Assembly: GCA_037132255.1 (NCBI GenBank)
Contig: JBAXPN010000001.1
Coordinates: 191,395-255,394 of the forward strand
Length of the DNA stretch: 64,000 nt
Reading direction: 5' to 3'
From: Candidatus Falkowbacteria bacterium
GTDB taxonomy: Bacteria > Patescibacteriota > Patescibacteriia > Patescibacteriales > UBA12465
Positions 6,132-63,321 of the stretch are shown piece after piece. A model generated the notes under the pieces. That model saw only the letters and a program-made list of their open reading frames with translations, was not told the DNA's origin and did no database searches. The position numbers and the translations under genes were made by a program. Numbering within the stretch: the first letter of the stretch is position 1; each line of letters begins with the position of its first letter.

Positions 6132-6155
6132 AGAAAAAATAAAGAGAGAATTTAA

Positions 6156-6188: not shown

Positions 6189-6313
6189 GTCGTAAAACTC
6201 AATAAATATGGCAGAAATACTATTGATATCATTTAATATTATTTAGAAATATTTTAATTATCCATAAGTAGGGACTTGCTATAGTATTTAGACTTAAAAT
6301 TAATTCTAAACAT

Positions 6314-11081: not shown

Positions 11082-11084
11082 TAA

Positions 11085-11111
11085 AAAAAGCCACTTTCGG
11101 GTGGCTTTTTA
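11085..11111 (+). terminator. Rho-independent terminator
   Basis: Hairpin AAGCCAC-TTTCGG-GTGGCTT followed by T5. Confidence 0.8.
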
Positions 11112-11149
11112 CTTGATTTATTTCTCGTTTTCTTGTATTGTGTAATTGT

Positions 11150-11545: not shown

Positions 11546-11548
11546 CAA

Positions 11549-12985: not shown

Positions 12986-12993
12986 TCAAACAA

Positions 12994-14106: not shown

Positions 14107-14109
14107 TTT

Positions 14110-15252
14110 ATGAAGATTGGAGTCGACATTAGAGTATTAATGGATGAATACTATAGCGGTGTCTCTCAATACACCGCTAATTTATTGACGGCAATTTTGG
14201 CTGCTGATAAAAAAAATAATTATAAATTATTTTATAATTCATGGGATAAACTTGATAAAAAATTGAGTATTTGGCGAAGAGATAATGCCAGCGTTATAGG
14301 TAGCCATATTCCTAATAAGATATTCAATTATTTTGGTCAAAGTGTATTAGCTTATCCTAAAATTGATAAATTATTAGGTGGCGTTGATATTTTTTGGGCT
14401 CCGCATTTTAATTTTTCGAGTCTTGGTGCAGAAACAAAAAAAATCATCACCGTTCATGACTTATCGTTTTTAAGATATCCAGAATTTTTTAGTTTGCGAA
14501 AAAATTGTTGGCACAAGGCTTTACGGGTCAGGAATATCCTCCGTAATGCTGATAAGATAATTGCCGTTTCCGAAAATACCAAAAATGATATCGTTGAACT
14601 CGTTGGTGTTCTACCTGAAAAAATTAGAGTTATTTACTCGGGTAATAATGCGATTAAAAAAGACGTAGATAAAGATAAGGCCGACAAATTCTTGCAAAGT
14701 CATAATATTTCCGGCCGTTTAATTCTATATTTAGGCACAATCGAGCCACGAAAAAACATCATTGGTTTAATTGCAGCTTACGAAGAGTTGCGCGCAAAGA
14801 ATTCTGAACTTAATGATGTAAAATTACTTTTAGTGGGTGCTAAGGGCTGGAAAAATAATCAGACCTACTCTAAATGGAAGAAATCGCCATACAAAAAGGA
14901 TATAATATTTTTAGGATATATTAATGAGGAGGAAAGAGATATTCTTTATGCTGAATCGAGTGTTTTTGCTTACCCCTCCTTTTACGAAGGTTTTGGTTTC
15001 CCACCGCTCGAGGCAATGACATATGGTTTGCCCGTTGTTTGTTCGAATGTTTCAAGCCTACCTGAAGTAGTTGGCGCGGCCGCCATAACCGTTAATCCAT
15101 ACGAGTCGGAGGAAATTGCCGATGCCTTAAGACTAGTTTTAACAGATAAGTCATTGCGCGAACTACTAATAAGCCGCGGCTATGAGCAGGCTAATAAATT
15201 TACCTGGGCTAAAACAGCAAGTGAATATCTAGATGCATTTGAAAAGATTTAG
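14110..15252 (+). CDS. Glycosyltransferase family 4 (GT-B, group 1)
   Basis: [32 protein letters not shown] motif (E-x7-E signature). Confidence 0.75.
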
Positions 15253-17331: not shown

Positions 17332-18096
17332 ATGGGAAAAATCATTGCTATTGTTAATCAAAAAGGCGGTGTCGGCAAGACAACGACGGCCGTAAATTTA
17401 GGTGCCTATTTAGCTTATCTTGGTAAACAGGTTCTTTTGGTTGATATTGACCCTCAAGCTAATGCAACTTCAGGTCTTGGCCTAGATCATCGAAATTTAG
17501 AGGCGGGCGTTTATGAATCCTTAATTGGCGACAAACCAGTTTTTGAAGTTATTAAAAGAACGATGCAAGAAGGTTTAAAAGTCGCTCCAGCTACTCTTTC
17601 TCTCGCTGGAGCTGGTATAGATTTGGTTAATCTCGAAAATCGCGAATTTCGCTTGTCGATAATTTTAGAAGAAATTAGAAAAGATTATGATTATATAATT
17701 ATTGACGGTCCACCATCTCTCGGATTATTAACGGTTAATAGTTTAGTCGCGGCTGATGAGGTATTAATTCCGATCCAAAGTGAATACTTCGCGCTTGAAG
17801 GCTTGAGTCAATTACTTGAAACAATCAGCCTTGTTCAAAATAATTTGAAGCCATCGCTGGGCATTATGGGCGCGGTCATTACCATGTTTGATAAACGAAA
17901 TAAATTATCCGAGGCGGTGATGGAAGAACTTTATAAATTTTTTCCCAACCGAATATTTCGCTCGGTTATTCCACGAAGTGTTCGTTTGGCCGAGGCACCG
18001 AGCTACGGACGTTCCATTTTGCACTATGATCCAAAATCTCGTGGCGGAAAAGCATATGAAGGCTTAGCGAAAGAAGTGTTGAGCCTAGAAAAATAA
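17332..18096 (+). CDS. parA: Chromosome partitioning ATPase ParA/Soj
   Basis: Deviant Walker A motif KIIAIVNQKGGVGKTTTAVNL. Confidence 0.85.
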   Translation: MGKIIAIVNQKGGVGKTTTAVNLGAYLAYLGKQVLLVDIDPQANATSGLGLDHRNLEAGVYESLIGDKPVFEVIKRTMQEGLKVAPATLSLAGAGIDLVNLENREFRLSIILEEIRKDYDYIIIDGPPSLGLLTVNSLVAADEVLIPIQSEYFALEGLSQLLETISLVQNNLKPSLGIMGAVITMFDKRNKLSEAVMEELYKFFPNRIFRSVIPRSVRLAEAPSYGRSILHYDPKSRGGKAYEGLAKEVLSLEK

Positions 18097-18107
18097 TTAA
18101 GATTTTT

Positions 18108-18503
18108 ATGAAAGTCTACAAATTCAAATACGAAAAATTAGTCCGGGATATGATACCGACGAAAATAAAAAAATCTGGCGGGAAAGTAAAACAGAAGACG
18201 CTTAGCACTAACAAATACATTTACGAACTAAAAAGGAAATTGATTGAAGAGGGAGAAGAATTACTGGTCGCAAAAAATACAAAAGACACACTTGATGAGA
18301 TGGCAGATATTCAGGAGCTAATTGATTGCTTATTGGTTTCCTTGGGCAAGAAAACACCTGATTTAAAAAAGCTGCAAAAAGAAAAGAATAAAAAGAACGG
18401 ATCTTTTAAGGACAAGATATATATAAACAATATAAGCGCTGATGAGAATTTTGATTGGTTAGACTATCATTTAAAAAACAAACAGAAATATCCCCTAATA
18501 TAA
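18108..18503 (+). CDS. MazG-like / HisE-like all-alpha NTP pyrophosphohydrolase family protein
   Basis: The core motif E47-x2-E50 ...(13 aa)... E64-x2-D67 (EEGEEL...DEMAD) matches the ExxE-x12-28-ExxD metal-binding signature. The N-terminal KLVRDMIP resembles the KLVRDxIPE start of small MazG-like proteins. Confidence 0.6.
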   Translation: MKVYKFKYEKLVRDMIPTKIKKSGGKVKQKTLSTNKYIYELKRKLIEEGEELLVAKNTKDTLDEMADIQELIDCLLVSLGKKTPDLKKLQKEKNKKNGSFKDKIYINNISADENFDWLDYHLKNKQKYPLI

Positions 18504-18509
18504 TAATAT

Positions 18510-19388
18510 ATGCCTCAAGGATTAGGCCGTGGACTCGGCTCTCTTATTCCAAAAAAAACAATGACTTACGGCCAGAATCCATTTAAGTCAGAGATGGCCG
18601 AAGAAGAAACGGTTGTTCTTCATGATGGGGATAGAATTTTAAAAATTAATCCCAGCCGCATTTCAATAAATCCGCAGCAACCACGTACTTTTTTTTCGGA
18701 CACCGCTCTTAATGACTTAGCTGAATCTATTAAGCAGCACGGCATTATCTCGCCGCTTATCGTTACTAAAAAAGACGATGGCTATGAACTTATTGCCGGA
18801 GAGCGCCGCTTGCGAAGCGCCAAATTAATTGGCCTTAAGGAAGTTCCAGTTATTGTCCGCGAAGAAAAAGATCAGAAAAAATTAGAAATCGCTCTAATTG
18901 AAAATTTGCAACGCGAAGACTTGAACCCGCTCGAAACAGCTCGTGCTTACCAAAGATTAATCGATGAATTTAGTATCACCCAAGAAGAAGCAGCCCGTAA
19001 GCTAGGGAAAGCGCGCTCAAGTGTTGCTAATGCTTTGCGTTTATTAGCGCTTCCACTTGAAATCCAGGAAGCCTTAGCTAGCGGAAAGATTAGCGAGGCC
19101 CATGCTAAATATTTACTTGGTCTTGAAGGAGAGGCAAAGCAAATAAACATGCTTAAAAAAATAATGCGGCAGAATTTAACAGTTGCTGAAACTGATAAAG
19201 AAATTAAGCGACTAGGCGGTACGAAGGCGGCAAAAACAAAAGATTATTTCGACCGCGCTCGCGAAGAAGAACTCGGAGAACTACTTGCGACAAAAGTAGA
19301 AATAAAGCGCCAAGGTAAGGGTGGAAAATTAGTCTTTGATTTTTACTCGGAAGAAGAATTAAATGAAATTATTAAGAAAATAAAATAA
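18510..19388 (+). CDS. parB: Chromosome partitioning protein ParB/Spo0J
   Basis: ParB box LIAGERRLRSAKLIGLKEVPVIVRE and helix-turn-helix region. Confidence 0.85.
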   Translation: MPQGLGRGLGSLIPKKTMTYGQNPFKSEMAEEETVVLHDGDRILKINPSRISINPQQPRTFFSDTALNDLAESIKQHGIISPLIVTKKDDGYELIAGERRLRSAKLIGLKEVPVIVREEKDQKKLEIALIENLQREDLNPLETARAYQRLIDEFSITQEEAARKLGKARSSVANALRLLALPLEIQEALASGKISEAHAKYLLGLEGEAKQINMLKKIMRQNLTVAETDKEIKRLGGTKAAKTKDYFDRAREEELGELLATKVEIKRQGKGGKLVFDFYSEEELNEIIKKIK

Positions 19389-31037: not shown

Positions 31038-32471
31038 ATGACCAAAATAAGTAATATTGCTAAAAATACTTCATATTTAACTATAGCACTGATTTTTCAA
31101 AAAATCATTTCTTTTACCTACTTTACACTTTTGGCTCGTTATGTTGGTCCAGCTAATCTCGGTAAGTACTATTTTGCCTTATCTTTCACGACAATTTTTG
31201 CCATATTTATTGATCTTGGCTTCGCTAATGTCCTAACCAGGGAAGTGGCGAAGGATTCGTCTCGCGCTGAGACTTGGTTAGCCAATATACTATCATTAAA
31301 AGTTCCGCTCGCTTTTTTATCATTAGCAGCGGTTTTTATTTTAATAAATGTTCTTGGTTATGACCCTTTAACGCGTAATTTGGTTTATATCTGTTCTATC
31401 TGCATGGTGTTAGACTCGTTTACGGCCACATTTTTTTCCGTTGTTCGCGGCTTTCATAATTTAAAATATGAGAGCATTTCTTCAGTTATATTCCAGATTA
31501 TTGTTTTAACTATCGGCTATAGCGCCTTATTACTTGGTGGTGGTCTTATTCCAGCGATGTTCGCGCTAGCAATAGCGAGCGCTTATAATTTTATCTACGC
31601 GATAATCATTCTAAAAAATAAAATTAAAGTTGCGATTAAGCTTATTTACGATAAGCATCTGACCAAGGAAATAATCACCATCTCTTGGCCCTTTGCTGTC
31701 TACGCAATATTCCAACGACTGTATACATATTTAGATTCAGTATTTTTATCAGTGTTGGCCGGGGACGAACAGGTCGGATTATACCAAATTGCTTTTAAAA
31801 TTATATTTGCTTTACAATTTTTGCCCATGGCGTTCACAGCCTCGCTTTACCCGGCCATGAGTTCTTATTGGCATAATAACCGCGAGCAATTAATTATTTC
31901 CTTTGAGAGAGCTTTGAGTTATTTGATTATTATTTCGCTACCGATTATTGTCGGTGCAGTCGTTCTGGCTGACAAAATTATTTTATTATTCAAAGCTGGT
32001 TACGGCGGAGCTCTATTGCCTTTGCAAATATCGATTATTTCTCTATTTTTTATCTTTATTAATTTTCCCATCGGCTCTCTCCTTAACGCTTGTGATAAAC
32101 AAAGAAAGAATACCTTAAACATGGGAATCGTAACAATTACCAGTATTATCCTTAACTTATTATTAATTCCTCATTATCAAGCCGTCGGTGCCAGCGTAAC
32201 CGTTCTTATTACTAATGCCTTAATGTTCATTTTGGGAATATATTGGGTGAAAAAAATTATTCCTTATCGAGCAGCCAAAAATTTGTTGATCTTTACTAAG
32301 GTTCTCTTTGCCTGTTTAGTCATGGGTGTAATAATATATTTCGGAAAAAGTTATTTAAATGTTTTTGTCGCGACGATAATTGGTTCCTTAATTTATTTTA
32401 CTTTATTACTAGGGCTCGGAGCTTTCAAGCGAGCTGATCTAAATAGCATTCTACAATCATTTAAGCGTTAA
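31038..32471 (+). CDS. Polysaccharide biosynthesis protein / Wzx-like oligosaccharide flippase (MOP superfamily)
   Basis: About 12-14 TM helices and 477 aa. It sits at the head of a glycosyltransferase operon. Confidence 0.65.
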   Translation: MTKISNIAKNTSYLTIALIFQKIISFTYFTLLARYVGPANLGKYYFALSFTTIFAIFIDLGFANVLTREVAKDSSRAETWLANILSLKVPLAFLSLAAVFILINVLGYDPLTRNLVYICSICMVLDSFTATFFSVVRGFHNLKYESISSVIFQIIVLTIGYSALLLGGGLIPAMFALAIASAYNFIYAIIILKNKIKVAIKLIYDKHLTKEIITISWPFAVYAIFQRLYTYLDSVFLSVLAGDEQVGLYQIAFKIIFALQFLPMAFTASLYPAMSSYWHNNREQLIISFERALSYLIIISLPIIVGAVVLADKIILLFKAGYGGALLPLQISIISLFFIFINFPIGSLLNACDKQRKNTLNMGIVTITSIILNLLLIPHYQAVGASVTVLITNALMFILGIYWVKKIIPYRAAKNLLIFTKVLFACLVMGVIIYFGKSYLNVFVATIIGSLIYFTLLLGLGAFKRADLNSILQSFKR

Positions 32472-32474
32472 TAT

Positions 32475-33557
32475 ATGAAAACTCTCTTATTTACTTTAGA
32501 ATATCCACCATTTCATGGTGGCGTCGCAAATTATTACGGTAATTTGGCGAAGTACTGGCCAATCTCAGAAAAAATGAGCATTCTTAACAATGATAAGGGC
32601 GAGCTTAGTCGCGGCACTGGCTTTTTTTCCTGGTGGCCAGCCCTGTTCTCTCTATATAGAAAATTGAGCAGGGAAGAATTTGAGTCATTACTAGTTGGTC
32701 AAATTCTACCATTGGGAACAGTCGCCTATTTAATATCACGTCTTATCCCGATAAAATATACCGTTTTTTTGCACGGCATGGATTTTGCCTTAGCAATTAA
32801 AACGCCATGGAAACAATTTTTAAGTAAATTAATACTTCGTCGGGCCGATAAAATTATTTGTGCTAATAGTTATGTACGGGATAGATTAATTGAATTTCTT
32901 CCTGAGTCTTCAATCAAAACTAGAATTGTTAATCCTGGAATCGAAGGTGGAGCACCTGAAATAGACGCCAAAGATATTGCGGAAATTAAAAATGAGTATC
33001 ATCTGGAAAATAAAACAGTTTTACTCAGTCTTGGCCGCTTAGTTAAAAGAAAGGGAGTCGACATGACTATAGACGCCTTGGCCTTGATTCCCGAAGAAGA
33101 AAGTAAAAATTTAATGTATTTTATCGCCGGCGCCGGTCCGCGTGAGGAATTTCTAAAAAAATTAGTTCCGCCAAGATTACTCGACAAAATTATTTTTCTC
33201 GGTAGCTTAAATGATCAAGAAAAATGGACCTGGCTAAAAATATGCGATATTTTTGTTATGCCTTCACGCGATATTTCTGGAGACTTCGAGGGTTTCGGTA
33301 TCGTTTATCTTGAAGCTAACTTAAGTGGTAAGCCTGTCATTGCCGGTAATTCCGGAGGTGTCCGCGACGCTGTCGTTGATGGAGTAACGGGCATAATGGT
33401 TGATCCCGAAAGGATAGAGGAAATTAAAGAAACAATAGTCACTCTTGTTAAAAATCCAGAATTAAGAAATAAGCTAGGACATGACGGAAAAATGCGCGCC
33501 ATGGAAGATTTTGATTGGGAAAACCAAGCTATTAAGGTTTGGCAATTTATAAAATAA
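32475..33557 (+). CDS. Glycosyltransferase family 4
   Basis: FEGFGIVYLEANLSGKPVIAGNSGG motif. Confidence 0.7.
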   Translation: MKTLLFTLEYPPFHGGVANYYGNLAKYWPISEKMSILNNDKGELSRGTGFFSWWPALFSLYRKLSREEFESLLVGQILPLGTVAYLISRLIPIKYTVFLHGMDFALAIKTPWKQFLSKLILRRADKIICANSYVRDRLIEFLPESSIKTRIVNPGIEGGAPEIDAKDIAEIKNEYHLENKTVLLSLGRLVKRKGVDMTIDALALIPEEESKNLMYFIAGAGPREEFLKKLVPPRLLDKIIFLGSLNDQEKWTWLKICDIFVMPSRDISGDFEGFGIVYLEANLSGKPVIAGNSGGVRDAVVDGVTGIMVDPERIEEIKETIVTLVKNPELRNKLGHDGKMRAMEDFDWENQAIKVWQFIK

Positions 33558-33563
33558 TAAATT

Positions 33564-34265
33564 ATGATTTCGATAATAATACCGGTTTATAACCAAGCTA
33601 CAAAATTAATTAAAACACTAGAGAGTATTAATAATCAGAGCTACCAAGAGTTTGAAGTAATAATTGTTAATGATGGTTCTAGTGATGGCGTTGAAATTCT
33701 TTGTGGCAATTATTTGAATAAGTTAGGCTCAACGAACTCTTATCTTTTTTTAAACCAAACAAATCATGGTGCCCCTGCAGCCCGCAACCGTGGTTATGTG
33801 CAAGCTAAAGGTAATTATTTATTTTTTTGCGATGCCGACGCGATACTGCACCCGCAAGCTTTAGAAATACTTCTTAAAACATTAGAAGCAAACCCAAATG
33901 TAAGTTACGCTTACTCTTCATTTTTATGGGGAAAGAAATTATTTAAACTTGGCGAATTTGACGCAGAGAAATTACAGAGCATGCCGTATATCCATACCAT
34001 GTCTTTAATTCGACGCTCCGATTATACTCCGACTGGTTGGGATGAAAGCATTACGAAACTTCAAGACTGGGATTTGTGGCTTACAATGCTTGAACAGGGA
34101 AGAATCGGCATATTCGTTTCTGAAGTCTTATTCACGGTAACGCCCGGCGGAACAATCAGCACTTGGCTTCCGGCTGTTGCTTACAAATATTTACCTTTTT
34201 TATCGCAAGTTAAGAAATATAAAAGAGCATTAAAAATTGTTAAAGACAAACATGGCCTTAAATAA
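33564..34265 (+). CDS. Glycosyltransferase family 2 (GT-A)
   Basis: N-terminal ISIIIPVYN, then ...VNDGSSDG... and a DAD (DxD-type) motif in FFCDADAIL. Confidence 0.7.
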   Translation: MISIIIPVYNQATKLIKTLESINNQSYQEFEVIIVNDGSSDGVEILCGNYLNKLGSTNSYLFLNQTNHGAPAARNRGYVQAKGNYLFFCDADAILHPQALEILLKTLEANPNVSYAYSSFLWGKKLFKLGEFDAEKLQSMPYIHTMSLIRRSDYTPTGWDESITKLQDWDLWLTMLEQGRIGIFVSEVLFTVTPGGTISTWLPAVAYKYLPFLSQVKKYKRALKIVKDKHGLK

Positions 34266-34725
34266 CAAAAAACGATATTTTATAATTTTACTGGTGTTAA
34301 TTGTATTTATTTTTATTGTAATTTACAGTACTTTTCGAGTTACAAATAAAAATATAAATACTAAATATTCAGTTCGAATTAATAATATTAAAATTGCCAT
34401 TGAGGTCGCATCAAGTCCGCTGCAACAATACCTTGGTTTAAGTAACCGTGAATCATTGTGCCCTAATTGTGGAATGTTGTTTATATTTAAAGATAAAGAA
34501 GAGCAGATATTTGTCATGCGGGATATGAAATTTCCGCTTGATATCGTTTTTATTGATGACAATAAAATTATCAATATTGAAAATAACTTAGTCCCCGAAG
34601 GGGATAAACCGAAAATGCTATACAAAAGTTTAACGCCCTCAAATCGAGTACTTGAATTACCTGGCGGCTTTTGTGAACAAAATAAGATTAAAGCTGGAGA
34701 CGCAGTAAATATTTTTGAGAATTGA
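34237..34725 (+). CDS. DUF192-family protein (COG1430)
   Basis: Signal anchor plus ...MLFIFKDKEEQIFVMRDMKFPLDIVFIDDNKII..., typical of DUF192. Confidence 0.6.
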   Translation: MLKTNMALNNKKRYFIILLVLIVFIFIVIYSTFRVTNKNINTKYSVRINNIKIAIEVASSPLQQYLGLSNRESLCPNCGMLFIFKDKEEQIFVMRDMKFPLDIVFIDDNKIINIENNLVPEGDKPKMLYKSLTPSNRVLELPGGFCEQNKIKAGDAVNIFEN

Positions 34726-36197
34726 CTATGAATAGCCTAAATATAAAAACAAAAATCGCCATTTACTTGGGAATTATAATTATCCTCGAATTTTTGTCTT
34801 ACGCTTCATTATTATCACAAAATCTAAGTGCACTTATTTTTATTATAATTATTACCGCTAGTTTAGCACTTACAGTATATCGTTTAGAATATGGCTTATT
34901 AGTTGTAATTGCCGAACTTTTAGTCGGTTCAATGGGGCATTTATTTATGCTTCATATTTCTGACCAACAAATTTCTATTAGAATTTGCCTTTGGTTTATT
35001 ACTTTAACAATTTTTTTCCTGAAGTTTATTGGACAAATTATTTGCGACGGAAAGGAATCAAAATATCTAAAAGCGCTCCTGAGTTTTTCCGGAGCTAAAT
35101 ATTTTATAATTCTGGCCATCTTTGCGTTTATTGGTCTCATAAACGCATTGCTACGCGGACAGCAATTAAATTTAATCGTCAGTGACTTTAATTCTTGGTT
35201 ATATTGGTTACTAATGCTTCCCGCAATTGTAACTTTTTCGGGCGATAGTAAAAAAAGTTTTGAAAATTTGAAAACAATTTTTTTGAGCGCTACAATCTGG
35301 CTAAGCTTAAAAACCTTAATTTTGCTTTACATCTTTACCCATAATTTAGTAATCGCGCCTGATGTTTATCTCTGGCTGCGTAAAACTTTAGTCGGGGAAA
35401 TGACCCCAACTTTATCTGGCTGGCCACGCATATTTATTCAAGGGCAAATATTTTCCGGCGTTGCCTTGTTTTTAACATTTTGGCTTAACAATAAAAGATT
35501 GAAAAATATTTCCAGCTTACTATTGGGGGCCGTATTTTCCAGCGCTCTTCTTATTAGCTTTTCTCGAAGTTTTTGGGTAGCCCTAATTGTCTCCATAATA
35601 TTTAGTTTAATAATTATTTGGCGTCTTTACTATTTTAAGGCTGCGCTAAAGAGTGCGCTTTGGTTCGCAATTAGTTTTTCGCTTGGCTTAGTCTTAATTA
35701 TTTTAGTTGCTATTTTTCCATACCCTGAGTCGGGGAAATTTAATGCTGATTTTATTAGTCGCGTTAGCAACGGAAATGAGGCGGCGCTTGCTTCTCGTTG
35801 GTCGCTATTACCGATATTAACGCAGGAAATAAAAAAAGAGCCCTTCTTTGGTCAGGGCTTCGGGGCAACTATCACCTATAAATCGAGTGATCCGCGCGTA
35901 TTAGAGAATGACCCGAGTGGTAAATACACGACCTACGCCTTTGAATGGGGCTATCTTGATTTATGGCTAAAAATTGGGCTCTTTGGCCTCTTGGCCTATC
36001 TTTTTTTAATATTATATTTAACAAATAAAGCAATTAAATATGGAGCTAAAAATAGCGATTATTTACTTTTAGGTCTGGCTGCAAGTTTCGTATTTTTAGC
36101 TATTACAAACATCTTTACGCCCTACTTAAATCATCCATTAGGGATGGGAATTCTGCTTATCGGGGCTTGTCTAATTCGAAAAGATAGGGTATATTAA
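34722..36197 (+). CDS. O-antigen ligase (Wzy_C)-like polytopic membrane protein
   Basis: About 12 TM helices with a large extracytoplasmic loop near the C-terminal third. It lies in the glycan operon. Confidence 0.5.
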   Translation: MTMNSLNIKTKIAIYLGIIIILEFLSYASLLSQNLSALIFIIIITASLALTVYRLEYGLLVVIAELLVGSMGHLFMLHISDQQISIRICLWFITLTIFFLKFIGQIICDGKESKYLKALLSFSGAKYFIILAIFAFIGLINALLRGQQLNLIVSDFNSWLYWLLMLPAIVTFSGDSKKSFENLKTIFLSATIWLSLKTLILLYIFTHNLVIAPDVYLWLRKTLVGEMTPTLSGWPRIFIQGQIFSGVALFLTFWLNNKRLKNISSLLLGAVFSSALLISFSRSFWVALIVSIIFSLIIIWRLYYFKAALKSALWFAISFSLGLVLIILVAIFPYPESGKFNADFISRVSNGNEAALASRWSLLPILTQEIKKEPFFGQGFGATITYKSSDPRVLENDPSGKYTTYAFEWGYLDLWLKIGLFGLLAYLFLILYLTNKAIKYGAKNSDYLLLGLAASFVFLAITNIFTPYLNHPLGMGILLIGACLIRKDRVY

Positions 36198-41447: not shown

Positions 41448-41480
41448 TGGCCCCGGAAACAAATCGGGGCTTTTTTATTT
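41448..41480 (+). terminator. Rho-independent terminator
   Basis: Hairpin GCCCCG-GAAACAAAT-CGGGGC followed by T6. Confidence 0.8.
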
Positions 41481-41538
41481 TTCCAATTTTTCATATATTA
41501 GGTTATAATATATAAATAATGTCCTAAAAAGAATTATT

Positions 41539-42168
41539 ATGATTCGTTTTAAAACTATCTCTATTTTTGTCGCGATTTCGCTAATTTTATTTATAGCTGT
41601 CTTTTTCTACGGTCGTTATCTGGGGCAAAAAAATGTTTCATTAGAAGCTCAAAAGCCGACCATAAATTCTCAAACAGTTTTAGAGCGGATAACAAGCCAA
41701 TATTTTTTAGTTACAAAAACTGTTTTTGTTAATAGTAAGGCCGAAATTGAAACACCAAAAAATAACAATTGGACCGATATATTTACCGGAAAGAAAATTA
41801 CAGTTGACGGCTTAATTAGGGTCGATGTCGGTGTCGAGATGAAAAATATGCGCCCGGAAAATATCGTCGTCGATTCTGAACAAAAAACGGTAACGATCAG
41901 CCTTCCACACGCCGAAATACTTGATGCCTCGTTATCTGGTGAATTAAATATCGATGAAGATAAAGCAATTACCGAGAAGCTCAAAGATGTTTTTAAGAAT
42001 ACGCAAAATGATGATTATAACTTAGCCCTCCAAACATTAATCGACAGCGCAAAAAGCCAAGTAACAGCCGACGAGAATATATTTAATTCTGCGCGAAGCG
42101 ATTCATTAAAGTTAGTCGAATTGATAGTTTCTGGCATGCTTGATGGATACAAATTAATAATTAAATAA
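41539..42168 (+). CDS. DUF4230-like membrane-anchored protein
   Basis: N-terminal TM, then ...SQYFLVTKTVFVNSKAEIE... and ...KITVDGLIRVDVGVEM..., resembling DUF4230. Confidence 0.45.
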   Translation: MIRFKTISIFVAISLILFIAVFFYGRYLGQKNVSLEAQKPTINSQTVLERITSQYFLVTKTVFVNSKAEIETPKNNNWTDIFTGKKITVDGLIRVDVGVEMKNMRPENIVVDSEQKTVTISLPHAEILDASLSGELNIDEDKAITEKLKDVFKNTQNDDYNLALQTLIDSAKSQVTADENIFNSARSDSLKLVELIVSGMLDGYKLIIK

Positions 42169-42179
42169 AAAATCTATTT

Positions 42180-43721
42180 ATGATATTTTGGGTATTGTAT
42201 TTTAGTGCTATAGCGTATTTTCAGATATCCAATACGATTAACGCGAATGCCTTTCTTAATCTGGGACTCTGCCTTTTTGTATTTATTCCGGTTCCTGAGA
42301 ATTTAAAGAGTAAAAAAATAATAAATATTATACGGACGCTTATTGCCTATATTCTTGCAATAACTTTATTATGGTCCGAATCTTATTTACCCCCCTTTAA
42401 AGTTATTTGGAATTTTTTTGTGCGTCCTGAGCTGCGACCAAGCCTGAGCTATATTTTGAATTTTGTGAACTCATTTTTCCAAATAAAATCTCTTCTTATT
42501 GTTTTAGCGATAATTACCATAGCATTACTTTTTAAATATACTAAACTAAAAAAAATCTCTCCAGCATTTTTTGCGATTTGCATCTTGATTCTATTCATTA
42601 CACAAAAGACAGCCATCAGCAAGGATTTTATTGATCGTTTCTATGCGAAAGAAGCGGCAAGATCATTCAGTATTTCGGAAAATCCGCAGAATAATTTCGA
42701 TGTAATAATTCTACAAATATGTTCGTTGTCCTGGGATGATTTGCAATACGCCAATACTGACGCAAAGTCTTTATTACGAAAATTTGATTATGTTTTCACC
42801 AATTTTAATTCAGCTACCCCATATAGCGATCCAGCAGCTCTTCGATTATTACAATCGGGTTGTGGACAAAAAACTGAGGGAGAATTATTTGCCACAGCTC
42901 CTGACAAATGTTATCTTTTAAACAATTTCCGAGCTCTAGACTATTCGACCTATTCCGCCTGGAATCATGATGGAAATTATTCAGACTTTAAATCCATAGT
43001 TCCTAAATACGGCAAGGCAGACCAGCCAATCAATATCAGCAGCCTGAAGCCGACTGAATTAAGTTTTGATAATGCGCCTATTTACCGTGATGGGGAGGTC
43101 TTGGATTTATGGCTCAAACAAAGAGAAACTAGCGGTAAGAAGTCTCTATTATTTTATAATAGTATTAGCCTGCATACAGGTTCGAGCTACATAGACGGCC
43201 AAAAATTATCTGAAAAGGATGAATATTCTTTGGCTTCAAAAAATGTTTTTAGCGATCTTGATAGTTTCCTGGATAAAATTAAGGCCAGTCAGCGCAATAC
43301 AATCGTTATATTATTAGGTGAACACGGGGCGGCGATTAGCGGCTCTAGCGTCCAGCCATCGACGGTCAGGGATATTCCGCTACCTTCGATCACGCAGGTG
43401 CCAGCGGCTGTAAAAATATTTGGACCTGGCTTTAATAGTGAAAACCCAAACAAAACAAGCATTATTAGTGATCCGGTTAGTTATACAGCTTTAGTCAAAA
43501 TTATCTCAAATGTTTTAGAAACCAACCCACAAAGTAGGCAAGAGCTACAAAATGCTAAGGTTGATAATAATTTACCGTTAACCGATCTTGTATCAGAATC
43601 TGAGAGCAGTATTGTATTCCAGGACGCGAGCGGGGTATTCTATAAATCTAAAAAAGATAAAAATTGGAATCAATTACCAAGCTCTTTTATGGTCAAGCCA
43701 GCGAACTATTTAGCGAATTAA
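42180..43721 (+). CDS. Membrane protein with a C-terminal alkaline-phosphatase-superfamily-like domain; candidate BcsG-like (phosphoethanolamine transferase) homologue
   Basis: Four or five N-terminal TM helices, then a ~350-aa extracytoplasmic domain containing ...VIILQICSLSWDDLQY... and ...VILLGEHGAAISG.... The Glu-His pair (rather than Asp-His) and a CSLSW-like nucleophile motif match what I recall for E. coli BcsG. It lies immediately upstream of the cellulose-synthase-family GT2. Confidence 0.4.
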   Translation: MIFWVLYFSAIAYFQISNTINANAFLNLGLCLFVFIPVPENLKSKKIINIIRTLIAYILAITLLWSESYLPPFKVIWNFFVRPELRPSLSYILNFVNSFFQIKSLLIVLAIITIALLFKYTKLKKISPAFFAICILILFITQKTAISKDFIDRFYAKEAARSFSISENPQNNFDVIILQICSLSWDDLQYANTDAKSLLRKFDYVFTNFNSATPYSDPAALRLLQSGCGQKTEGELFATAPDKCYLLNNFRALDYSTYSAWNHDGNYSDFKSIVPKYGKADQPINISSLKPTELSFDNAPIYRDGEVLDLWLKQRETSGKKSLLFYNSISLHTGSSYIDGQKLSEKDEYSLASKNVFSDLDSFLDKIKASQRNTIVILLGEHGAAISGSSVQPSTVRDIPLPSITQVPAAVKIFGPGFNSENPNKTSIISDPVSYTALVKIISNVLETNPQSRQELQNAKVDNNLPLTDLVSESESSIVFQDASGVFYKSKKDKNWNQLPSSFMVKPANYLAN

Positions 43722-43817
43722 AAAATGAGCCGCGAGGCTCTTTTTTGAAATAGCAAGCTTATTTAATATATGGTATATTAAATATGTGGAATTTAAGCAA
43801 AACTAAAGCCTTGCCAG

Positions 43818-45356
43818 GTGAAGAAAAGAACTCGAATATATTTAATTCTATTCAGTCTAGCAGCGCTAGGCTTATTTGTGTATTTTGGGGTTCGCCTCTA
43901 TGTCTTTTTTTCCAATGGTCATGGATTCTTAAACGTTACAATTTCCTTTTTTCTTTTACTAGCCGAAACTCATTCTATTCTGCATTCACTGGGTTTTATA
44001 ATTGGTCTTATTAGACTTCGTAATACTAGTGACGAACACAACCGTCACGCAAAGCTTGATCGAAATAATTTACCATCCGTCAGCATTCTGATACCAGCGA
44101 GAAACGAACCTTTAGACATACTCGAGATTACCTTTATCTCAGTTGTTTCTCTGGATTATGTAAATAAAAAAATTGTCTTTCTGGATGGCTCGGATGAAAA
44201 ATATTTAGCCGATAATAAAAACCTTGCCCTAAAATACGGTATCGACTACTTTCATCCAAACGAAAAACCAAAAAGTAAAGCAGAAATAGTAAATAAGTAT
44301 TTGCCGAGCATTTTAAGTAAGTACATAACAATTTTTGATGCCGATCAAAACCCCTTACCAGAATTTTTAATGGAAACTGTCGGACTAGCTGAGTATTCAA
44401 ATAAAATCGGCTTCATTCAAACGCCACAACTATACTCGAATCTTAACGCCAGTCCGATCGCCCGCGGCGCTGCCCTCCAGCAATCAATTTTTTATGAAAA
44501 TGTCTGCGAGGCGAAAGGGAAGTCTGGCGCTATGTTTTGTTGTGGCACGAACTTCCTTATGCAAACAGTTGCCTTGAAAAAAGTCGGAGGATTTGACGAG
44601 GACTCTGTGACTGAAGATTTTGCAACCTCCGTTAAAATTCATTCTTTAGGCTATCGTTCAATATACTATAACCACGTCAGAGTTTTCGGTATGGCTCCTG
44701 AAACTTTACCAGCCTATCTTAAACAACAATTTCGCTGGTCTGCGGGTTCGGTTGGTGTTTTACGCCGCCTGGTGATTGATTCTTGGAATGGTAAATTACA
44801 CCTCCGCATTTCCCAAGTTTGGGAATACTTTCTTTCAGCAACCTATTATTTCGTTGGCTGGTCATTCTTAATTTTAATGCTTTGTCCGATTCTTTATTTA
44901 TTATTTGATGTGCCGACATACTTTGCGAGTCCATATCTTTATCTCGGAACATTTATCCCTTACTACGTTCTAATGATGATTACTTTCTATTCAACCATGA
45001 AAAGAAGGCATTATAAAATGAAAGATGTTTTCAATGGCATTATCATGGGTTCATTAAGTTATCCGGTACTCATAAAATCAACCACGGCCGCAATTTTAGG
45101 AAAAAGAGTAACTTTTGAAATCACTGATAAAGGCAAATCAGGAAAACTAAGTTTTCTCAGTTTATGGCCTTGGACAATAATGATCGCCTTAAATATACTC
45201 GCAATCACTAACGGCCTACTTCATTTTTCTGAAAACCCCTACGCAATAATCGTAAATATTGTTTGGTGCACTTACCACGCCTTACTACTTTCACGTGTAT
45301 TTAAATTAAACAGAACTCCAATAATAGAAAAAAATAATGTCCTAAACTATACTTAA
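43818..45356 (+). CDS. Processive family-2 glycosyltransferase of the cellulose synthase (BcsA/CelA) family, with no PilZ domain
   Basis: IQTPQ, MFCCGTNF (similar to FFCGS), VTEDFATSVKIHSLGYRSIY (the TED ... H..GW.S.Y block) and QQFRWSAGS (QxxRW). TM helices flank both sides of the catalytic domain. Confidence 0.7.
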   Translation: MKKRTRIYLILFSLAALGLFVYFGVRLYVFFSNGHGFLNVTISFFLLLAETHSILHSLGFIIGLIRLRNTSDEHNRHAKLDRNNLPSVSILIPARNEPLDILEITFISVVSLDYVNKKIVFLDGSDEKYLADNKNLALKYGIDYFHPNEKPKSKAEIVNKYLPSILSKYITIFDADQNPLPEFLMETVGLAEYSNKIGFIQTPQLYSNLNASPIARGAALQQSIFYENVCEAKGKSGAMFCCGTNFLMQTVALKKVGGFDEDSVTEDFATSVKIHSLGYRSIYYNHVRVFGMAPETLPAYLKQQFRWSAGSVGVLRRLVIDSWNGKLHLRISQVWEYFLSATYYFVGWSFLILMLCPILYLLFDVPTYFASPYLYLGTFIPYYVLMMITFYSTMKRRHYKMKDVFNGIIMGSLSYPVLIKSTTAAILGKRVTFEITDKGKSGKLSFLSLWPWTIMIALNILAITNGLLHFSENPYAIIVNIVWCTYHALLLSRVFKLNRTPIIEKNNVLNYT

Positions 45357-45357
45357 T

Positions 45358-45615
45358 ATGAAAAATAAACCAAATATTATGTCCCCAGAGCTAGTTTTAC
45401 AGCTCATTAACGAGGCAAGGATAAAAGAAGAGTTAGCTATCCCGATTTATACTAGCCATATAAAACAAACCCTGTTTTGGTCTGGACTACCTAATGCTAA
45501 GCAAGAAAAAATAATAGCGAGTTTAAAATTACTAGAAGCGGATTCGCAGAAACACGCTAAAATCTTAAAAATGGTCGCAAATAATTACACTAAATATCTT
45601 AAAAAATATGTTTAA
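45358..45615 (+). CDS. Ferritin-like half-domain protein (85 aa); possibly the 5' part of a frameshifted gene
   Basis: Helix pair with E...E and ExxH (LEADSQKHAKIL). It overlaps the next ORF by 8 nt at an A6 run (45601-45606). Confidence 0.4.
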   Translation: MKNKPNIMSPELVLQLINEARIKEELAIPIYTSHIKQTLFWSGLPNAKQEKIIASLKLLEADSQKHAKILKMVANNYTKYLKKYV

Positions 45616-45796
45616 TAATAACGATTATCGTACATATTTTAAGCAGCTTTACGAAGTTGAATTAATGATGAAGCGTGAAGGCGAGGAATTATTAAAATTA
45701 GTTCCCGACGAAGAATCGCAATTAATTCTAAAAAGTCTAGTCGCTGATGAAATAAGACACGCTAAAATAGTTAAAGAAATGATGGCACTTATTTAA
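45608..45796 (+). CDS. Ferritin-like half-domain protein (62 aa); possibly the 3' part of the same frameshifted gene
   Basis: Helix pair with E...E and ExxH (ADEIRHAKIV). It is in the +1 frame relative to the upstream ORF. Confidence 0.4.
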   Translation: MFNNNDYRTYFKQLYEVELMMKREGEELLKLVPDEESQLILKSLVADEIRHAKIVKEMMALI

Positions 45797-45806
45797 CAAT
45801 AATCTT

Positions 45807-46697
45807 ATGTCTAAAATAAAAACTGCAGTTATACCAGTCGGTGGTTGGGGTACTAGATTCCTTCCAATTACTAAAAGTATCCCAAAAGAGATGCTTCCGC
45901 TCGGCAACAAACCTATAATTCTTCACGTTGTCGAAGAAGTAGTTGCATCCGGCATCACCAATATTATTTTCGTCGTTTCGCAACATAAGCAAGTTATTGA
46001 AAGTTTCTTTTCCAGCAACGAAATGCTCGAAGATTATTTTCTTAAAATTGGAGCTAAGGCACAGGCGGAAAATCTGAAGAAAATTACCGAGATGGCCAAT
46101 TTTACTTTCGTCTACACTAAAAATCCTCACGGAAATAGCGGCGCTCTTGGAGCTGTTCGTAATTTAGTTAAAGATGAACCATTTATAGTTATCTGGTCAG
46201 ACGAAGTAATTATTTCGAAAGAAAAAACACGTGTCAAGCAATGTCTTGAAACTTTCGAAAAATATAATAAGCCAGTTATCTCAGCTGTGAAAATACTTGA
46301 CCCGAAAAAACGACAGCGCTATGGCATGGCTGAATTAGCTGACATGGAAGGCGAAACTGATATTAAAGAAATCAAAAGCATCGTCGAAAAACCGGCCTTC
46401 GGAACCGAACCATCGGAATACGCAACACATGGTGCTTATGTCCTAACTTCAGAAATATTTACTGCACTTGATACAATTCCTGATAATGAGGAAAAGGAAA
46501 TTAGCCTTGTTGATGTAATCAATATCATGAAGGAAAAAACCGGTTTAATCGCAAAAATTATTCCCGATGCACATTATCTTGATTGTGGTAATCCGCTCGA
46601 ATATCTGTATTCGCAAATTGACTATTATGCCAATTACTCGGAATACTCCGCTGACGTTCTTGATTACCTGGGAAAGGGAGTTTGCAAACGAGTCTAA
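45807..46697 (+). CDS. galU: UTP--glucose-1-phosphate uridylyltransferase
   Basis: AVIPVGGWGTRFLPITKSIPKEMLP, the G-x-G-T-R-x-L-P-x-T-K nucleotidyltransferase motif. Confidence 0.8.
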   Translation: MSKIKTAVIPVGGWGTRFLPITKSIPKEMLPLGNKPIILHVVEEVVASGITNIIFVVSQHKQVIESFFSSNEMLEDYFLKIGAKAQAENLKKITEMANFTFVYTKNPHGNSGALGAVRNLVKDEPFIVIWSDEVIISKEKTRVKQCLETFEKYNKPVISAVKILDPKKRQRYGMAELADMEGETDIKEIKSIVEKPAFGTEPSEYATHGAYVLTSEIFTALDTIPDNEEKEISLVDVINIMKEKTGLIAKIIPDAHYLDCGNPLEYLYSQIDYYANYSEYSADVLDYLGKGVCKRV

Positions 46698-46748: not shown

Positions 46749-47522
46749 TTATTTTGTTATTAGACTCCGCATCGAAAGGCTTTTATTTGAGATTCCTTCG
46801 CTGAATGATTTTATCTCTTCATTCTCATATTGAAGTCCGAGAAAATATATTAATGGTAAATAATGTTCTGGTGTCGGAATAGATGATTTCGCCTCTGGGC
46901 CTAATTTTTCGAAATCAATTAATTTTTTATAGTCATGACTATTTATGAGTTGCGAGACGTGTTCATCAAATTTAGAAGCCCAAGAGTAGGGAATAGCGCT
47001 TTCATCAAAGTCGATAAGTCCAAGATTATGAACAATATTCCCGCTACAGACGATTAAACATCCATCTTCACGCAAAGCGCGTCCAATCTGAAAATGATAA
47101 TCAGAAGGCTTGCTGCCGTTTATACTTAATTGAGCTACCGGAATATCGGCCTTCGGGAATAAGCGTGACAGTGGAACCCAGGCGCCATGATCAATGCCCC
47201 ACGAATTATCAAATTCAATATTTTCTATCGGTTCGAGCAACTCTTTTATCTTTTTCGCAATTTCCGGCGAACCAATTACAGGATATTTAAGCACGTATAG
47301 TTCTTCGGGAAAACCATAAAAATCATTAATCTGCTTTGGTTGTTTTGTATCCGAGGTCACCGTCTTATCAGTATACCAATGCGCAGAGATGCATAAAATT
47401 GCCTTTGGCCTAACAAGATCTTGCCCGATTTTTTCCCAGGATGCAGTATAGACATTATTCTCAATTGCGTTCATCGGACTTCCATGCCCAATAAATATAG
47501 CTGGCATTCTTGATTTTGTCAT
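46749..47522 (-). CDS. Class III extradiol dioxygenase (LigB/YgiD-type, 4,5-DOPA-dioxygenase-like)
   Basis: MPAIFIGHGSPMNA... and ...ILCISAHW... are characteristic YgiD-family motifs. Confidence 0.7.
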   Translation of the reverse strand: MTKSRMPAIFIGHGSPMNAIENNVYTASWEKIGQDLVRPKAILCISAHWYTDKTVTSDTKQPKQINDFYGFPEELYVLKYPVIGSPEIAKKIKELLEPIENIEFDNSWGIDHGAWVPLSRLFPKADIPVAQLSINGSKPSDYHFQIGRALREDGCLIVCSGNIVHNLGLIDFDESAIPYSWASKFDEHVSQLINSHDYKKLIDFEKLGPEAKSSIPTPEHYLPLIYFLGLQYENEEIKSFSEGISNKSLSMRSLITK

Positions 47523-62286: not shown

Positions 62287-63321
62287 TTACTTTTTCACTA
62301 ATTGCTGCAAACTTTTATACAAAATTTGTGCAAGTGATTCTTCGACAAAAATATCATGGATCTTACCTCCCGTTCTTTTTGAGTAATCACGGGGAATCGT
62401 ATTTCCCATTAATATCTTATCAAAGGGGTTATTATCAAATAACTTCCGGCGCCAAGATCTAACTAAGACAGGGTGCATGGCTAAAAAAATAATTAGCCTT
62501 GATCCTAATTCTTTTAACCTTTCTCCAGTCGAATTGGCGGTTTCGCCCGTGCAAACTTCATCCTCAGTTACAACGATCGCCTGGTCTTTAATATGCTCTA
62601 TATCAGCATATGCTATATCAGGGAAGTTAAAGTTTGCTTGGTAGTACTTAATTAGCTCAGTGATTTCTAACTCATCTTCAGCTTTAATTGTTATTGCATT
62701 ATTTAAGCCACGTTCTTTTAAGCTAAAAATAACTCTACTCCCAGTTAACTTAGCCAAACCAATAGCACGAACAATTGAACCTTTATCAGGAGCATAGATT
62801 TCCGGAATTTCGTCGAGGTAGGTTTTGATAGCAGATGAGAAGAGGGGCGATGGATCAAGTTCACGCATTACAATTCCATACTCGTCGCAAAATTGCTTCA
62901 TCTTGGGTGAATGTGGTGACACGGTGATGATTTCATCGACACCAGCATGTTTTAAGCGGTCAATAACCATGCGCAAACGGCAAACTTCATCAAGTTTTTC
63001 TTCGTGATCCTGACGCCTAAAAATTAAAAAGGCAATTACTGCAATCAAGTATTTCGCTTTATACTGTCGCTTTAAGGCCCAGATTGCTTCCAGCGCTTCT
63101 TCAAGCAATTCGCGATTATAAATACTTTGAAAATATACGACTGTTCTATTCTCGATTTCCTCGTAATGAGGAAATTTATCATCACATTCTTCGTCGGTAT
63201 ACTCAGCGATGTCGACATGACTAAAGACAAGCTCTTTGCCATGATATTCACCCAAATGTTTTAAAGTCGCAGCTGCCAAATGATGGTTTCCGCGACCACT
63301 GTAATAAAGGACTTTTTCCAT
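62287..63321 (-). CDS. Divergent ribose-phosphate pyrophosphokinase (PRPP synthetase)-like protein
   Basis: Collinear with Prs: LYYSGRGNHHLAAATLKHLG...VFSHVDIAEY aligns with LFSGNANPELAQKIA..LG...VSRFSDGE; IFRRQD with YARQDR; and VTEDEVCTGET with the PRPP loop VDDMIDTGGT. The motifs carry non-canonical substitutions. Confidence 0.5.
   Translation of the reverse strand: MEKVLYYSGRGNHHLAAATLKHLGEYHGKELVFSHVDIAEYTDEECDDKFPHYEEIENRTVVYFQSIYNRELLEEALEAIWALKRQYKAKYLIAVIAFLIFRRQDHEEKLDEVCRLRMVIDRLKHAGVDEIITVSPHSPKMKQFCDEYGIVMRELDPSPLFSSAIKTYLDEIPEIYAPDKGSIVRAIGLAKLTGSRVIFSLKERGLNNAITIKAEDELEITELIKYYQANFNFPDIAYADIEHIKDQAIVVTEDEVCTGETANSTGERLKELGSRLIIFLAMHPVLVRSWRRKLFDNNPFDKILMGNTIPRDYSKRTGGKIHDIFVEESLAQILYKSLQQLVKK

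Follow-up and report, generated by a model that had tools for sequence, protein, structure and literature searches.

How might a cell polymerise and modify a cellulose-type glucan with neither BcsB nor a PilZ switch? Bacterial cellulose synthesis is understood through BcsA–BcsB with its built-in PilZ switch, and phosphoethanolamine (pEtN) cellulose is regarded as a Gram-negative, mostly enterobacterial trait. The question is raised by six closely spaced open reading frames (ORFs) on the + strand of a Candidatus Falkowbacteria genome, at positions 41539–46697 of a 64-kb stretch of DNA that we call the window. They encode, in order, a DUF4230 protein, a BcsG-family transferase, a BcsA-like processive family 2 glycosyltransferase (GT2), two small proteins named here s85 and s62, and the uridylyltransferase GalU. 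A first-pass annotation, made from the sequence alone, had described a cellulose-synthase-family module in a Patescibacteria-like genome; its ORFs are all present on the + strand where it had placed them, and the source is indeed a metagenome-assembled genome (MAG) of the Patescibacteria group. We put at roughly 55% the probability that the cluster encodes a pared-down, single-membrane form of the synthase-dependent systems that secrete cellulose-type glucans.

A BcsG-family transferase without the N-linker

By sequence and predicted fold, the 513-aa protein encoded at 42180–43721 (+ strand) is a true BcsG, a member of a family of phospholipid-headgroup transferases. It matches the Pfam family CBP_BcsG (PF11658) with 382.6 bits (E = 3.5e-114) against a cut-off of 24.8, reaches 365.3 bits with NCBIfam TIGR03368, slightly under the equivalog cut-off of 410.2, and is matched by the solved BcsG catalytic domains of the Protein Data Bank (PDB) at E = 2e-60; the identical protein in NCBI carries the name BcsG. 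The zinc and nucleophile residues of Escherichia coli BcsG (C243, S278, H396, E442 and H443) align with C181, S216, H332, E381 and H382 of the window protein, and the disulfide C290–C306 aligns with C228 and C244. Two BcsG-specific residues of the E. coli enzyme, Y277 and R458, reported to be essential and possibly glucan-contacting (PMC8892547), align with Y215 and R397. Most catalytic residues are invariant across 27 homologs, and S216, C228 and C244 are at least 90% conserved. The CSLSW-like motif and Glu-His pair on which the first-pass annotation had based its comparison with BcsG are both real, the former as ICSLSW (containing C181) and the latter as E381/H382.

An AlphaFold model of the protein (pLDDT 86.3) predicts an extracytoplasmic catalytic domain with the alkaline-phosphatase fold and a complete metal and nucleophile site, as had been proposed for this gene. 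The model superposes on the BcsG structures 6pcz and 5ojh with TM-scores of 0.84–0.88 and a root-mean-square deviation (rmsd) of 2.1–2.5 Å (Foldseek), and the next-best structural matches (PbgA, LtaS and EptA) are about 20 orders of magnitude weaker. Its N-terminal helices span residues 2–16, 24–35, 45–67, 102–120 and 123–140, with short helices at 73–81 and 89–98; a hydropathy scan agrees with this five-transmembrane (TM) N-terminal domain, which fits the E. coli description of five TM helices with interface helices. What is missing is the N-linker of about 45 aa of E. coli BcsG, seen as a 47-residue gap in the alignment: 33 aa separate the last TM helix from the catalytic Cys in the window protein, compared with 82 in E. 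coli.

A BcsA-like synthase that ends ahead of PilZ

Directly downstream, the 512-aa GT2 (43818–45356, + strand) is, on sequence and model, BcsA-like but not BcsA. Its best NCBIfam model is CelA (TIGR03030, 219.5 bits), well ahead of PgaC (77) and NodC (29), so the concern that PgaC, NodC or hyaluronan-synthase models might describe it better has fallen away; PDB BcsA matches it at E = 3e-36. Scores against BcsA cut-offs are low, with 219.5 versus 699.1 bits for TIGR03030 and 150 versus 992 for PRK11498. The motifs DAD, QTPQ, FCCGT, TED and QQFRW align with those of BcsA and are invariant across 13 family members, in keeping with the full processive-synthase motif set claimed for the gene, and the gating loop FEITDK, likewise conserved in the family, aligns with FNVTAK/FAVTAK.

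The predicted structure (pLDDT 82.8, pTM 0.82) is closest to Rhodobacter sphaeroides BcsA (TMq 0.83–0.84, rmsd 3.5 Å by Foldseek), followed by E. coli BcsA (0.70–0.80), plant CesA (about 0.70) and hyaluronan synthases (0.46–0.62). The model contains a GT-A domain, interface helices and only six of the eight TM helices of BcsA, the first two being missing. The protein also has no counterpart of the N-terminal part of E. coli BcsA, about 195 residues long, and it stops about 20 residues past its last TM helix, where E. coli BcsA runs about 180 residues further. The CelA match covers model positions 57–559 of 714 and therefore ends ahead of the PilZ part; Pfam finds no PilZ domain in the GT2, which bears out the earlier description of a synthase lacking this receptor.

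A family of short synthases with a conserved small partner

To place this enzyme among its relatives, one genome per species was scanned, which yielded at least 490 loci with a short GT2; the best 80 were analysed, and their neighbouring genes were found with profiles built from the window proteins. Nearly all of the best 120 GT2 homologs are 470–540 aa long (two outliers have 420 and 610 aa) and none is annotated with PilZ. Their sources are Patescibacteria, Elusimicrobia, Fibrobacteres, Verrucomicrobia and Latescibacterota, and NCBI labels family members only 'glycosyltransferase'. The first-pass annotation had thought such a system unusual. The short PilZ-less synthase, present in at least 490 species genomes, is not rare; its combination with BcsG is uncommon.

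The small-gene pair s85 and s62 lies downstream of the GT2 in 69 of the 80 loci, and most exceptions are truncated contigs. It is found in 15 of the 17 Patescibacteria loci and 54 of the 63 from other phyla, whereas the other neighbours differ by lineage. A galU gene accompanies the short GT2 in 14/17 Patescibacteria loci and in 0/63 elsewhere. Conversely, a secreted GH26-like protein of about 320 aa (54/63; Pfam GH26 E about 1e-15) and an upstream secreted TPR/BcsC-like protein (45/63) are confined to the other phyla (0/17 each in Patescibacteria). The resulting gene orders are TPR–GT2–GH26–s85–s62 in diderms and GT2–s85–s62–galU in Patescibacteria. In CAZy, GH26 is best known for mannanases and also includes lichenases. 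BcsG adjoins the short GT2 in 3/17 Patescibacteria and 6/63 other loci, the latter all within the 16 Elusimicrobia loci. None of the 80 loci has a BcsB homolog by sequence search, which a non-homologous analog could escape.

Several variations on these arrangements were seen. Four loci with the Patescibacteria-type order GT2–s85–s62–galU and 60–77% identity to the window (L007, L008, L014 and L015, on CAZFBV01, CAYYDR01, CAZUFH01 and CAZJEP01) belong to MAGs labelled 'uncultured Gammaproteobacteria' or 'Pseudomonadales', labels that look wrong. A GT2 sub-group of about 610 aa carries an extra C-terminus of about 100 residues (L066:9998–11833, L037:9986–11830, L040, L043, L047, L058, L064, L067 and L070); neither a PilZ domain nor a fused hairpin was detected there with Pfam or with the s85 and s62 profiles, and by eye the extension might be a PilZ-like barrel that has degenerated. 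Here the GT2 is followed by s85/s62 and then by receiver and histidine-kinase genes, often with an added GH26 gene and a second s85/s62 pair. In three Patescibacteria loci (L018:1079–3072, L020:7995–9999 and L025:7745–11919), genes of about 125–150 aa and a gene of 375–569 aa directly flank the GT2 and share a BLAST cluster with receiver- and kinase-sized genes of other phyla and with a PAS protein of L010. These may be two-component signalling genes, and where PilZ is missing they could point to control of transcription.

Two half-ferritin hairpins and their PilZ fusions

Where the first-pass annotation had noted one small ferritin-like gene, the likeness to ferritin holds, but there are two genes, s85 (45358–45615, 85 aa) and s62 (45608–45796, 62 aa), both on the + strand. 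The s85 gene starts 1 nt past the GT2 stop, and the two small genes overlap by 8 nt (ATGTTTAA). A single frameshifted gene was considered and rejected: the split is kept in 69 loci across phyla, and each gene has its own start codon. The earlier view of a synthase without a partner likewise holds for PilZ and BcsB, both lacking, and fails for this pair, which is the hallmark partner of the family.

Neither protein has a TM segment. In s62, the residues E18, E48 and H51 (the last two as E48-x-x-H51) are invariant in the family, and the family profile matches the Due Ferri diiron hairpins (1mft) at E = 3.5e-9, as well as the ferritin-like diiron-carboxylate protein TM1526, symerythrin and the encapsulin cargo proteins EncB/EncC. 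The conserved residues of s85 are E24, Y31, H34, F40, S63 and H66. Its best PDB profile match is EncC, a weak one at E = 0.024, and an s85 homolog from Omnitrophota matches the N-terminal half of Pfam Rubrerythrin at E = 2.2e-5. Compared by hhalign, the two profiles prove homologous (E = 2.8e-5), s85 having a 9-residue loop insertion, and on this profile evidence s85 and s62 are half-ferritin hairpins and paralogs that have diverged. The analogy of encapsulated ferritins and the Due Ferri designs suggests that the two ought to assemble as a single four-helix bundle. In s85, Ser occupies the usual Glu position of ExxH, a non-canonical half-site, so that metal binding is no more than plausible. 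The window s85 and s62 themselves have no Pfam match, and neither a Pfam family nor an NCBIfam model exists for them; s62 is annotated 'hypothetical protein WCN88_01245'.

In 10 of the 76 s62-family ORFs, a frequency that rests on the 80 loci, the s62 hairpin is fused to a C-terminal PilZ domain. The fusions (L049, L050:12543–13046, L053, L056, L057, L059:12646–13185, L076, L077, L079 and L084) come from Omnitrophota, Planctomycetes and unclassified MAGs, and their PilZ domains carry the canonical RxxxR and (D/N)xSxxG motifs, with Pfam PilZ E-values of 2e-6 and 4e-8 in the two that were scanned. The s62 family at large comprises at least 251 clusters at 50% identity (E ≤ 1e-10), of which the best 150 are all stand-alone proteins of 58–103 aa; a word-indexed search with the s62 profile returned 51 matches, again all stand-alone, and missed the known fusions. 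PilZ is the domain that gates BcsA, and its attachment to the invariant small neighbour of the synthase speaks for a regulatory or adaptor role of the s85/s62 bundle as a subunit of that enzyme. In the fusion loci, the cyclic di-GMP (c-di-GMP) receptor would then be supplied in trans to a PilZ-less synthase. Judged from domain content, c-di-GMP control would then take several forms within the family, with none visible in Patescibacteria, the window included.

BcsG recurs beside the short synthase

In the window, in the Patescibacteria loci L005/L010, L012, L013 and L087, and in the Elusimicrobia loci L019, L028, L030, L034, L073, L080 and L089, a short GT2 has BcsG no more than a few kb away; at least five gene orders are represented across the two phyla. 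In all of these GT2-linked BcsGs, the catalytic Cys follows the last TM helix after 33–45 residues. In a neighbour-joining tree calculated without support values, the BcsGs of Patescibacteria and Elusimicrobia form separate clades, and the Patescibacteria clade mixes adjacent with free-standing genes. A more distant BcsG homolog, P0013, adjoins a full-length BcsA with PilZ. In one Paceibacteria assembly (GCA_041738235.1), BcsG (P0005) is on contig JBGSQF010000018 (L004) beside a P-type ATPase and a DsbD-like gene, and GT2–s85–s62–galU is on the separate contig JBGSQF010000013 (L017); BcsG and the GT2 can therefore share a genome without being linked.

A 2026 preprint describes the BcsGs with the shortest N-linkers, including those of Elusimicrobiota, as not co-localised with bcs clusters, calls such proteins 'free-standing', and considers BcsG apparently restricted to Gram-negative bacteria (bioRxiv 10.64898/2026.09.23.753746). 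The gene neighbourhoods seen here suggest that 'free-standing' BcsGs do have a neighbouring synthase, a non-canonical one. BcsG is also present in a lineage that is presumed to have no outer membrane. Literature searches returned nothing relevant on BcsG in Patescibacteria, on cellulose synthase in the candidate phyla radiation or on PilZ-less BcsA, no paper describing the short-GT2 family, and only unrelated papers on phosphatidylethanolamine in Patescibacteria.

An Elusimicrobia-specific protein of about 265 aa adjoins the operon, typically between s62 and BcsG, and has no Pfam or NCBIfam match (L019:12976–13794, L021, L024, L027:12835–13752, L028, L030, L034 and L080; also a 264-aa gene at L089:8578–9372). 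NCBIfam has no model for the GH26-like protein either. On the P0013 contig, a 267-aa gene lies between a GH10 gene and the PilZ-containing BcsA.

Absent Bcs components and the surrounding genes

Homologs of E. coli BcsB, BcsC, BcsZ, BcsE, BcsF, BcsR and PdeK were not found in the 64-kb window (phmmer, E ≤ 1), and no GGDEF, EAL, PilZ or BcsB domain was present among the window ORFs scanned with Pfam. That scan covered 37 of the 42 non-shadow ORFs of at least 150 aa, and four more were taken from the precomputed Pfam table of L001; the only unscanned ORF among the 42 lies at 62287–63321 (− strand, 344 aa). The earlier statement that BcsB, BcsC, BcsZ and a diguanylate cyclase are absent is therefore borne out within the window. 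A ParA-like gene at 17332–18096 was weighed as BcsQ and set aside, scoring 34 bits with CBP_BcsQ but 218 bits with AAA_31/ParA and adjoining ParB (17332–19388). For the gene identities in the window, chance is ruled out by the E-values.

The last gene of the cluster (45807–46697, + strand) encodes a 296-aa GalU-type UTP-glucose-1-phosphate uridylyltransferase. TIGR01099 is its best model by a wide margin (219.6 bits over positions 1–259 of 261, cut-off 326.8), Pfam NTP_transferase matches at E = 1e-29, and the N-terminal motif GGxGTRxLPxTKxxPKE(M)LP is visible in the sequence as VGGWGTRFLPITKSIPKEMLP. Both the identity of galU and its place downstream of the GT2, past a small ferritin-like gene, had been recognised at first pass.

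At the other end, the 209-aa DUF4230 protein (41539–42168, + strand; PF14014, E = 3.9e-10) has one N-terminal TM helix and an extracytoplasmic domain, and it ends 11 nt ahead of the BcsG start. It does head the cluster as its first ORF, as had been described. Its membership of the module is weak: elsewhere DUF4230 is near the module only in L010/L005, a single other BcsG locus, and not in L012 or L013, and a two-sequence DUF4230 profile matches only the window and L010. It is a possible accessory whose membership is not established.

A consensus scan found four candidate transcription signals. A terminator-like hairpin with a T-run (41449–41471, + strand), expected to end the upstream transcript, gives weak evidence for the likely 5′ boundary of the cluster and is followed by a sigma-70-like promoter candidate (TTTCCA-18-TATAAT, 41480–41509, + strand) 30 nt 5′ of the DUF4230 start. 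Directly 3′ of the BcsG stop, a short GC-rich palindromic hairpin between T-runs on both strands (43727–43740) may be a terminator or attenuator that divides a BcsG unit from a synthase unit, and a second sigma-70-like candidate (TTGAAA-18-TATGGT, 43745–43774, + strand) precedes the GT2 start. Compared with shuffled sequence, the cluster region shows no enrichment of promoter- and terminator-like sites, which leaves a division into two adjacent units of transcription as only a hint.

The module is adjoined at 46749–47522 (− strand) by a gene resembling LigB-family extradiol dioxygenases. Such a gene (257–264 aa across the window and its relatives) also lies by the module in two close Falkowbacteria-type relatives, at differing positions (L006:310–1185 and L087:8560–9354); the genes may be linked in function or simply share synteny. 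At 3873–15252 and 31038–36197 lie two more groups of genes for glycan assembly, both of the Wzx/Wzy type. Among their products are two O-antigen ligase-like Wzy_C proteins (one of which has TPR repeats), three GT4 enzymes and a GT2, an initiating transferase (Bac_transf) and a flippase (Polysacc_synt). Surface glycans can thus be made by other pathways in this cell, and these too could offer acceptors for BcsG. A 1108-aa ORF (5–3331) has no Pfam match, and a 1288-aa ORF (7215–11081) with Lamin-tail and concanavalin-like Laminin_G_3 domains is probably a surface or adhesion protein.

Proposed mechanism and alternative explanations

The gene families, their intact catalytic sites, the domain content and losses, the conservation of the gene set and the PilZ fusions are directly established. 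Building on them, we propose that GalU would make UDP-glucose and that the six-TM GT2 would polymerise it, with neither BcsB nor a built-in PilZ, into a beta-glucan, most likely beta-1,4-linked, threading the chain through its own channel. The s85 and s62 proteins, translationally coupled to the synthase, would form a cytoplasmic, heterodimeric four-helix half-ferritin bundle, probably metal-binding, that attaches to the synthase and regulates it or serves as its adaptor; the same subunit would, in some members of Omnitrophota and Planctomycetes, bear the c-di-GMP receptor PilZ in trans. The window s62 has no PilZ, so control here is probably independent of c-di-GMP. At the membrane surface, the linker-less BcsG would move a phospholipid head group onto the emerging glucan; homology suggests phosphoethanolamine, taken from phosphatidylethanolamine. 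With no BcsB crown and no outer membrane, no long tether, TPR/porin protein or periplasmic hydrolase would be needed.

Several observations weigh against this model of a minimal cellulose-type secretion system. The scores with TIGR03368, TIGR03030 and TIGR01099 all fall under the NCBI trusted cut-offs, and where cellulose operons have the GH8 enzyme BcsZ, the hydrolase associated with this family in other phyla resembles GH26. The activity of R. sphaeroides BcsA depends on the membrane anchor of BcsB, for which no analog was identified in the window. BcsG is present in only 9 of the 80 GT2 loci; the BcsG homologs P0002 (69% identity) and P0004 (63%) stand alone, and P0005 is on a different contig from the GT2. 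The hairpin and promoter-like site between BcsG and the GT2 suggest, weakly, separate transcripts. The non-canonical half-site of s85 means that metal binding is not assured. Finally, a Salmonella BcsG with a shortened N-linker made less pEtN cellulose, and the authors of that work propose other substrates for BcsGs with very short linkers (bioRxiv 10.64898/2026.09.23.753746).

The most durable alternative, although we think it unlikely, is that the synthase makes another beta-glycan (a mixed-linkage beta-1,3/1,4-glucan, a beta-1,3-glucan or some other UDP-sugar polymer) and that BcsG decorates this product. The distance of the CelA score from its equivalog cut-off (219 versus 699), a sequence identity to BcsA of only 20–22%, the GH26-like rather than GH8 hydrolase, the loss of BcsB throughout the 80 loci and the presence of the mixed-linkage synthase CslF6 among the structural neighbours (TMq 0.65) all favour it. 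Against these stand BcsA as the closest match to the GT2 in both sequence and structure, the adjacency of galU in Patescibacteria, which points to a UDP-glucose donor, and the recurrent pairing with BcsG. This pairing argues for a beta-1,4-glucan-like acceptor, because cellulose is the only demonstrated BcsG acceptor and the residues equivalent to Y277 and R458 are kept.

We regard as improbable a second explanation, in which BcsG has nothing to do with the adjoining synthase, acts on a lipid-linked glycan, a wall polymer or a protein, and is adjacent only through local synteny in two lineages. Close relatives do have a BcsG with no GT2 nearby, adjacent and free-standing genes intermingle in one Patescibacteria clade, a possible terminator and promoter intervene in the window, the GT2 lacks the N-terminal BcsA domain by which E. 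coli recruits BcsG, the Wzx/Wzy-type pathways lie in the same window, and other substrates have been proposed for very short linkers (bioRxiv 10.64898/2026.09.23.753746). Yet the adjacency recurs in two phyla with separate BcsG clades, and its gene orders number at least five, which makes inherited synteny alone hard to credit; moreover, at least one 'unlinked' assembly still holds a short-GT2 cluster, and the BcsG-specific Y277 and R458 are retained.

That s85 and s62 are passengers with an iron or oxidative-stress function, riding in the operon of a constitutively active synthase that has no partner, also seems a poor bet: they do resemble ferritin-like and rubrerythrin-like diiron proteins and carry database names such as 'ferritin family protein' or 'rubrerythrin', but the pair trails the GT2 in 69 of 80 species from at least seven phyla while every other gene rearranges, s62 and GT2 matches occur on contigs of equal size, the pair is translationally coupled to the synthase (1-nt gap and 8-nt overlap), ten independent fusions join it to PilZ, the classic regulator of this enzyme class, and the s85 half-site is degenerate for a ferroxidase.

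Beyond the minimal secretion system, a bolder and frankly doubtful proposal is that s85/s62 represent a new class of regulatory subunit for processive GT2s, a bundle that senses metal, redox state or oxygen, binds the synthase at the site of PilZ action in BcsA and either replaces c-di-GMP control, as in Patescibacteria and Elusimicrobia, or carries PilZ in trans, as in some Omnitrophota and Planctomycetes; together with the linker-less BcsG, it would yield head-group-modified cellulose on a host-dependent cell that lacks an outer membrane, and it would account for the 'free-standing' BcsGs of the preprint.

Significance

The genes are individually of known kinds and partly annotated; as far as we have found, the system-level architecture is undescribed. 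It brings together a minimal synthase family lacking PilZ and BcsB, a conserved split half-ferritin partner that in some lineages carries PilZ in trans, and a BcsG with no linker in a lineage that lacks an outer membrane. If the proposal is true, a widespread and uncharacterised minimal synthase family works with neither BcsB nor an intrinsic PilZ and offers a small system for structural work and engineering. The half-ferritin partner would either tie polysaccharide secretion to a metal or redox cue or dock c-di-GMP control in trans. 'Free-standing' BcsGs would have a cognate synthase, with loss of the linker following from the missing BcsB crown, and Patescibacteria, whose host attachment is poorly understood, may wear a zwitterionic, modified glucan coat.

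Comparison with known systems

One close reference is the type II Bcs system of E. coli and Salmonella (BcsRQABZC–BcsEFG), whose product is pEtN cellulose. The window shares with it a BcsA-type GT2 with all catalytic and gating motifs and a BcsG with the zinc/nucleophile site, the disulfide pair, Y277/R458 and a catalytic domain within 2.1–2.5 Å. By contrast, it has no PilZ, BcsA N-terminal domain, BcsB crown, BcsC, BcsZ, BcsE, BcsF, BcsQ or BcsR; its BcsG lacks the linker of about 45 residues and its synthase has six rather than eight TM helices; and two half-ferritin proteins and galU are present instead. In E. coli, an N-terminal BcsA domain of about 140 residues, found only in producers of pEtN cellulose, recruits a BcsG trimer, and the BcsG linker of about 45 residues matches the height of the BcsB crown.

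The type III BcsA–BcsB complex of R. sphaeroides (4HG6, 4P00 and 5EJ1) resembles the window GT2 in its GT-A domain, QxxRW interface helix, FxVTxK gating loop and channel TM helices. R. sphaeroides BcsA is, however, a 788-aa protein with four N-terminal TM helices, a C-terminal PilZ domain by which c-di-GMP gates activity and an obligatory BcsB, none of which the window GT2 has. The 'free-standing' short-linker BcsGs (bioRxiv 10.64898/2026.09.23.753746) agree with those of the window and of Elusimicrobia in linker length, at 33–45 residues; here such BcsGs are found repeatedly beside a BcsA-like synthase, and in a Patescibacteria genome.

The Gram-positive ccsZABHI system of clostridia is likewise a Bcs-like system with neither an outer membrane nor BcsC. 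It differs in that CcsA retains PilZ, in having the membrane partner CcsB with a carbohydrate-binding module, a GH5 hydrolase and O-acetylation genes, and in lacking BcsG and the half-ferritin pair. In alginate synthesis, Alg44 is a trans-acting c-di-GMP receptor subunit with a PilZ domain. The s62–PilZ proteins of Omnitrophota and Planctomycetes are comparable, since they place PilZ on a separate small subunit outside the synthase; their carrier is a half-ferritin hairpin rather than a membrane-fusion-type co-polymerase, and the window s62 has no PilZ.

For the small proteins themselves, the nearest parallels are EncB/EncC and Due Ferri, with which they share a two-helix unit of 60–85 aa, a Glu on helix 1, ExxH on helix 2 and the need for two units to pair before a four-helix di-metal site can form. 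Unlike these, s85 and s62 are two diverged paralogs in tandem, which implies a heterodimer, and one half-site reads ESxxH and is joined by an extra invariant His. They also differ from EncB/EncC in their setting, which is not an encapsulin but a GT2 synthase beside which they are encoded, sometimes fused to PilZ.

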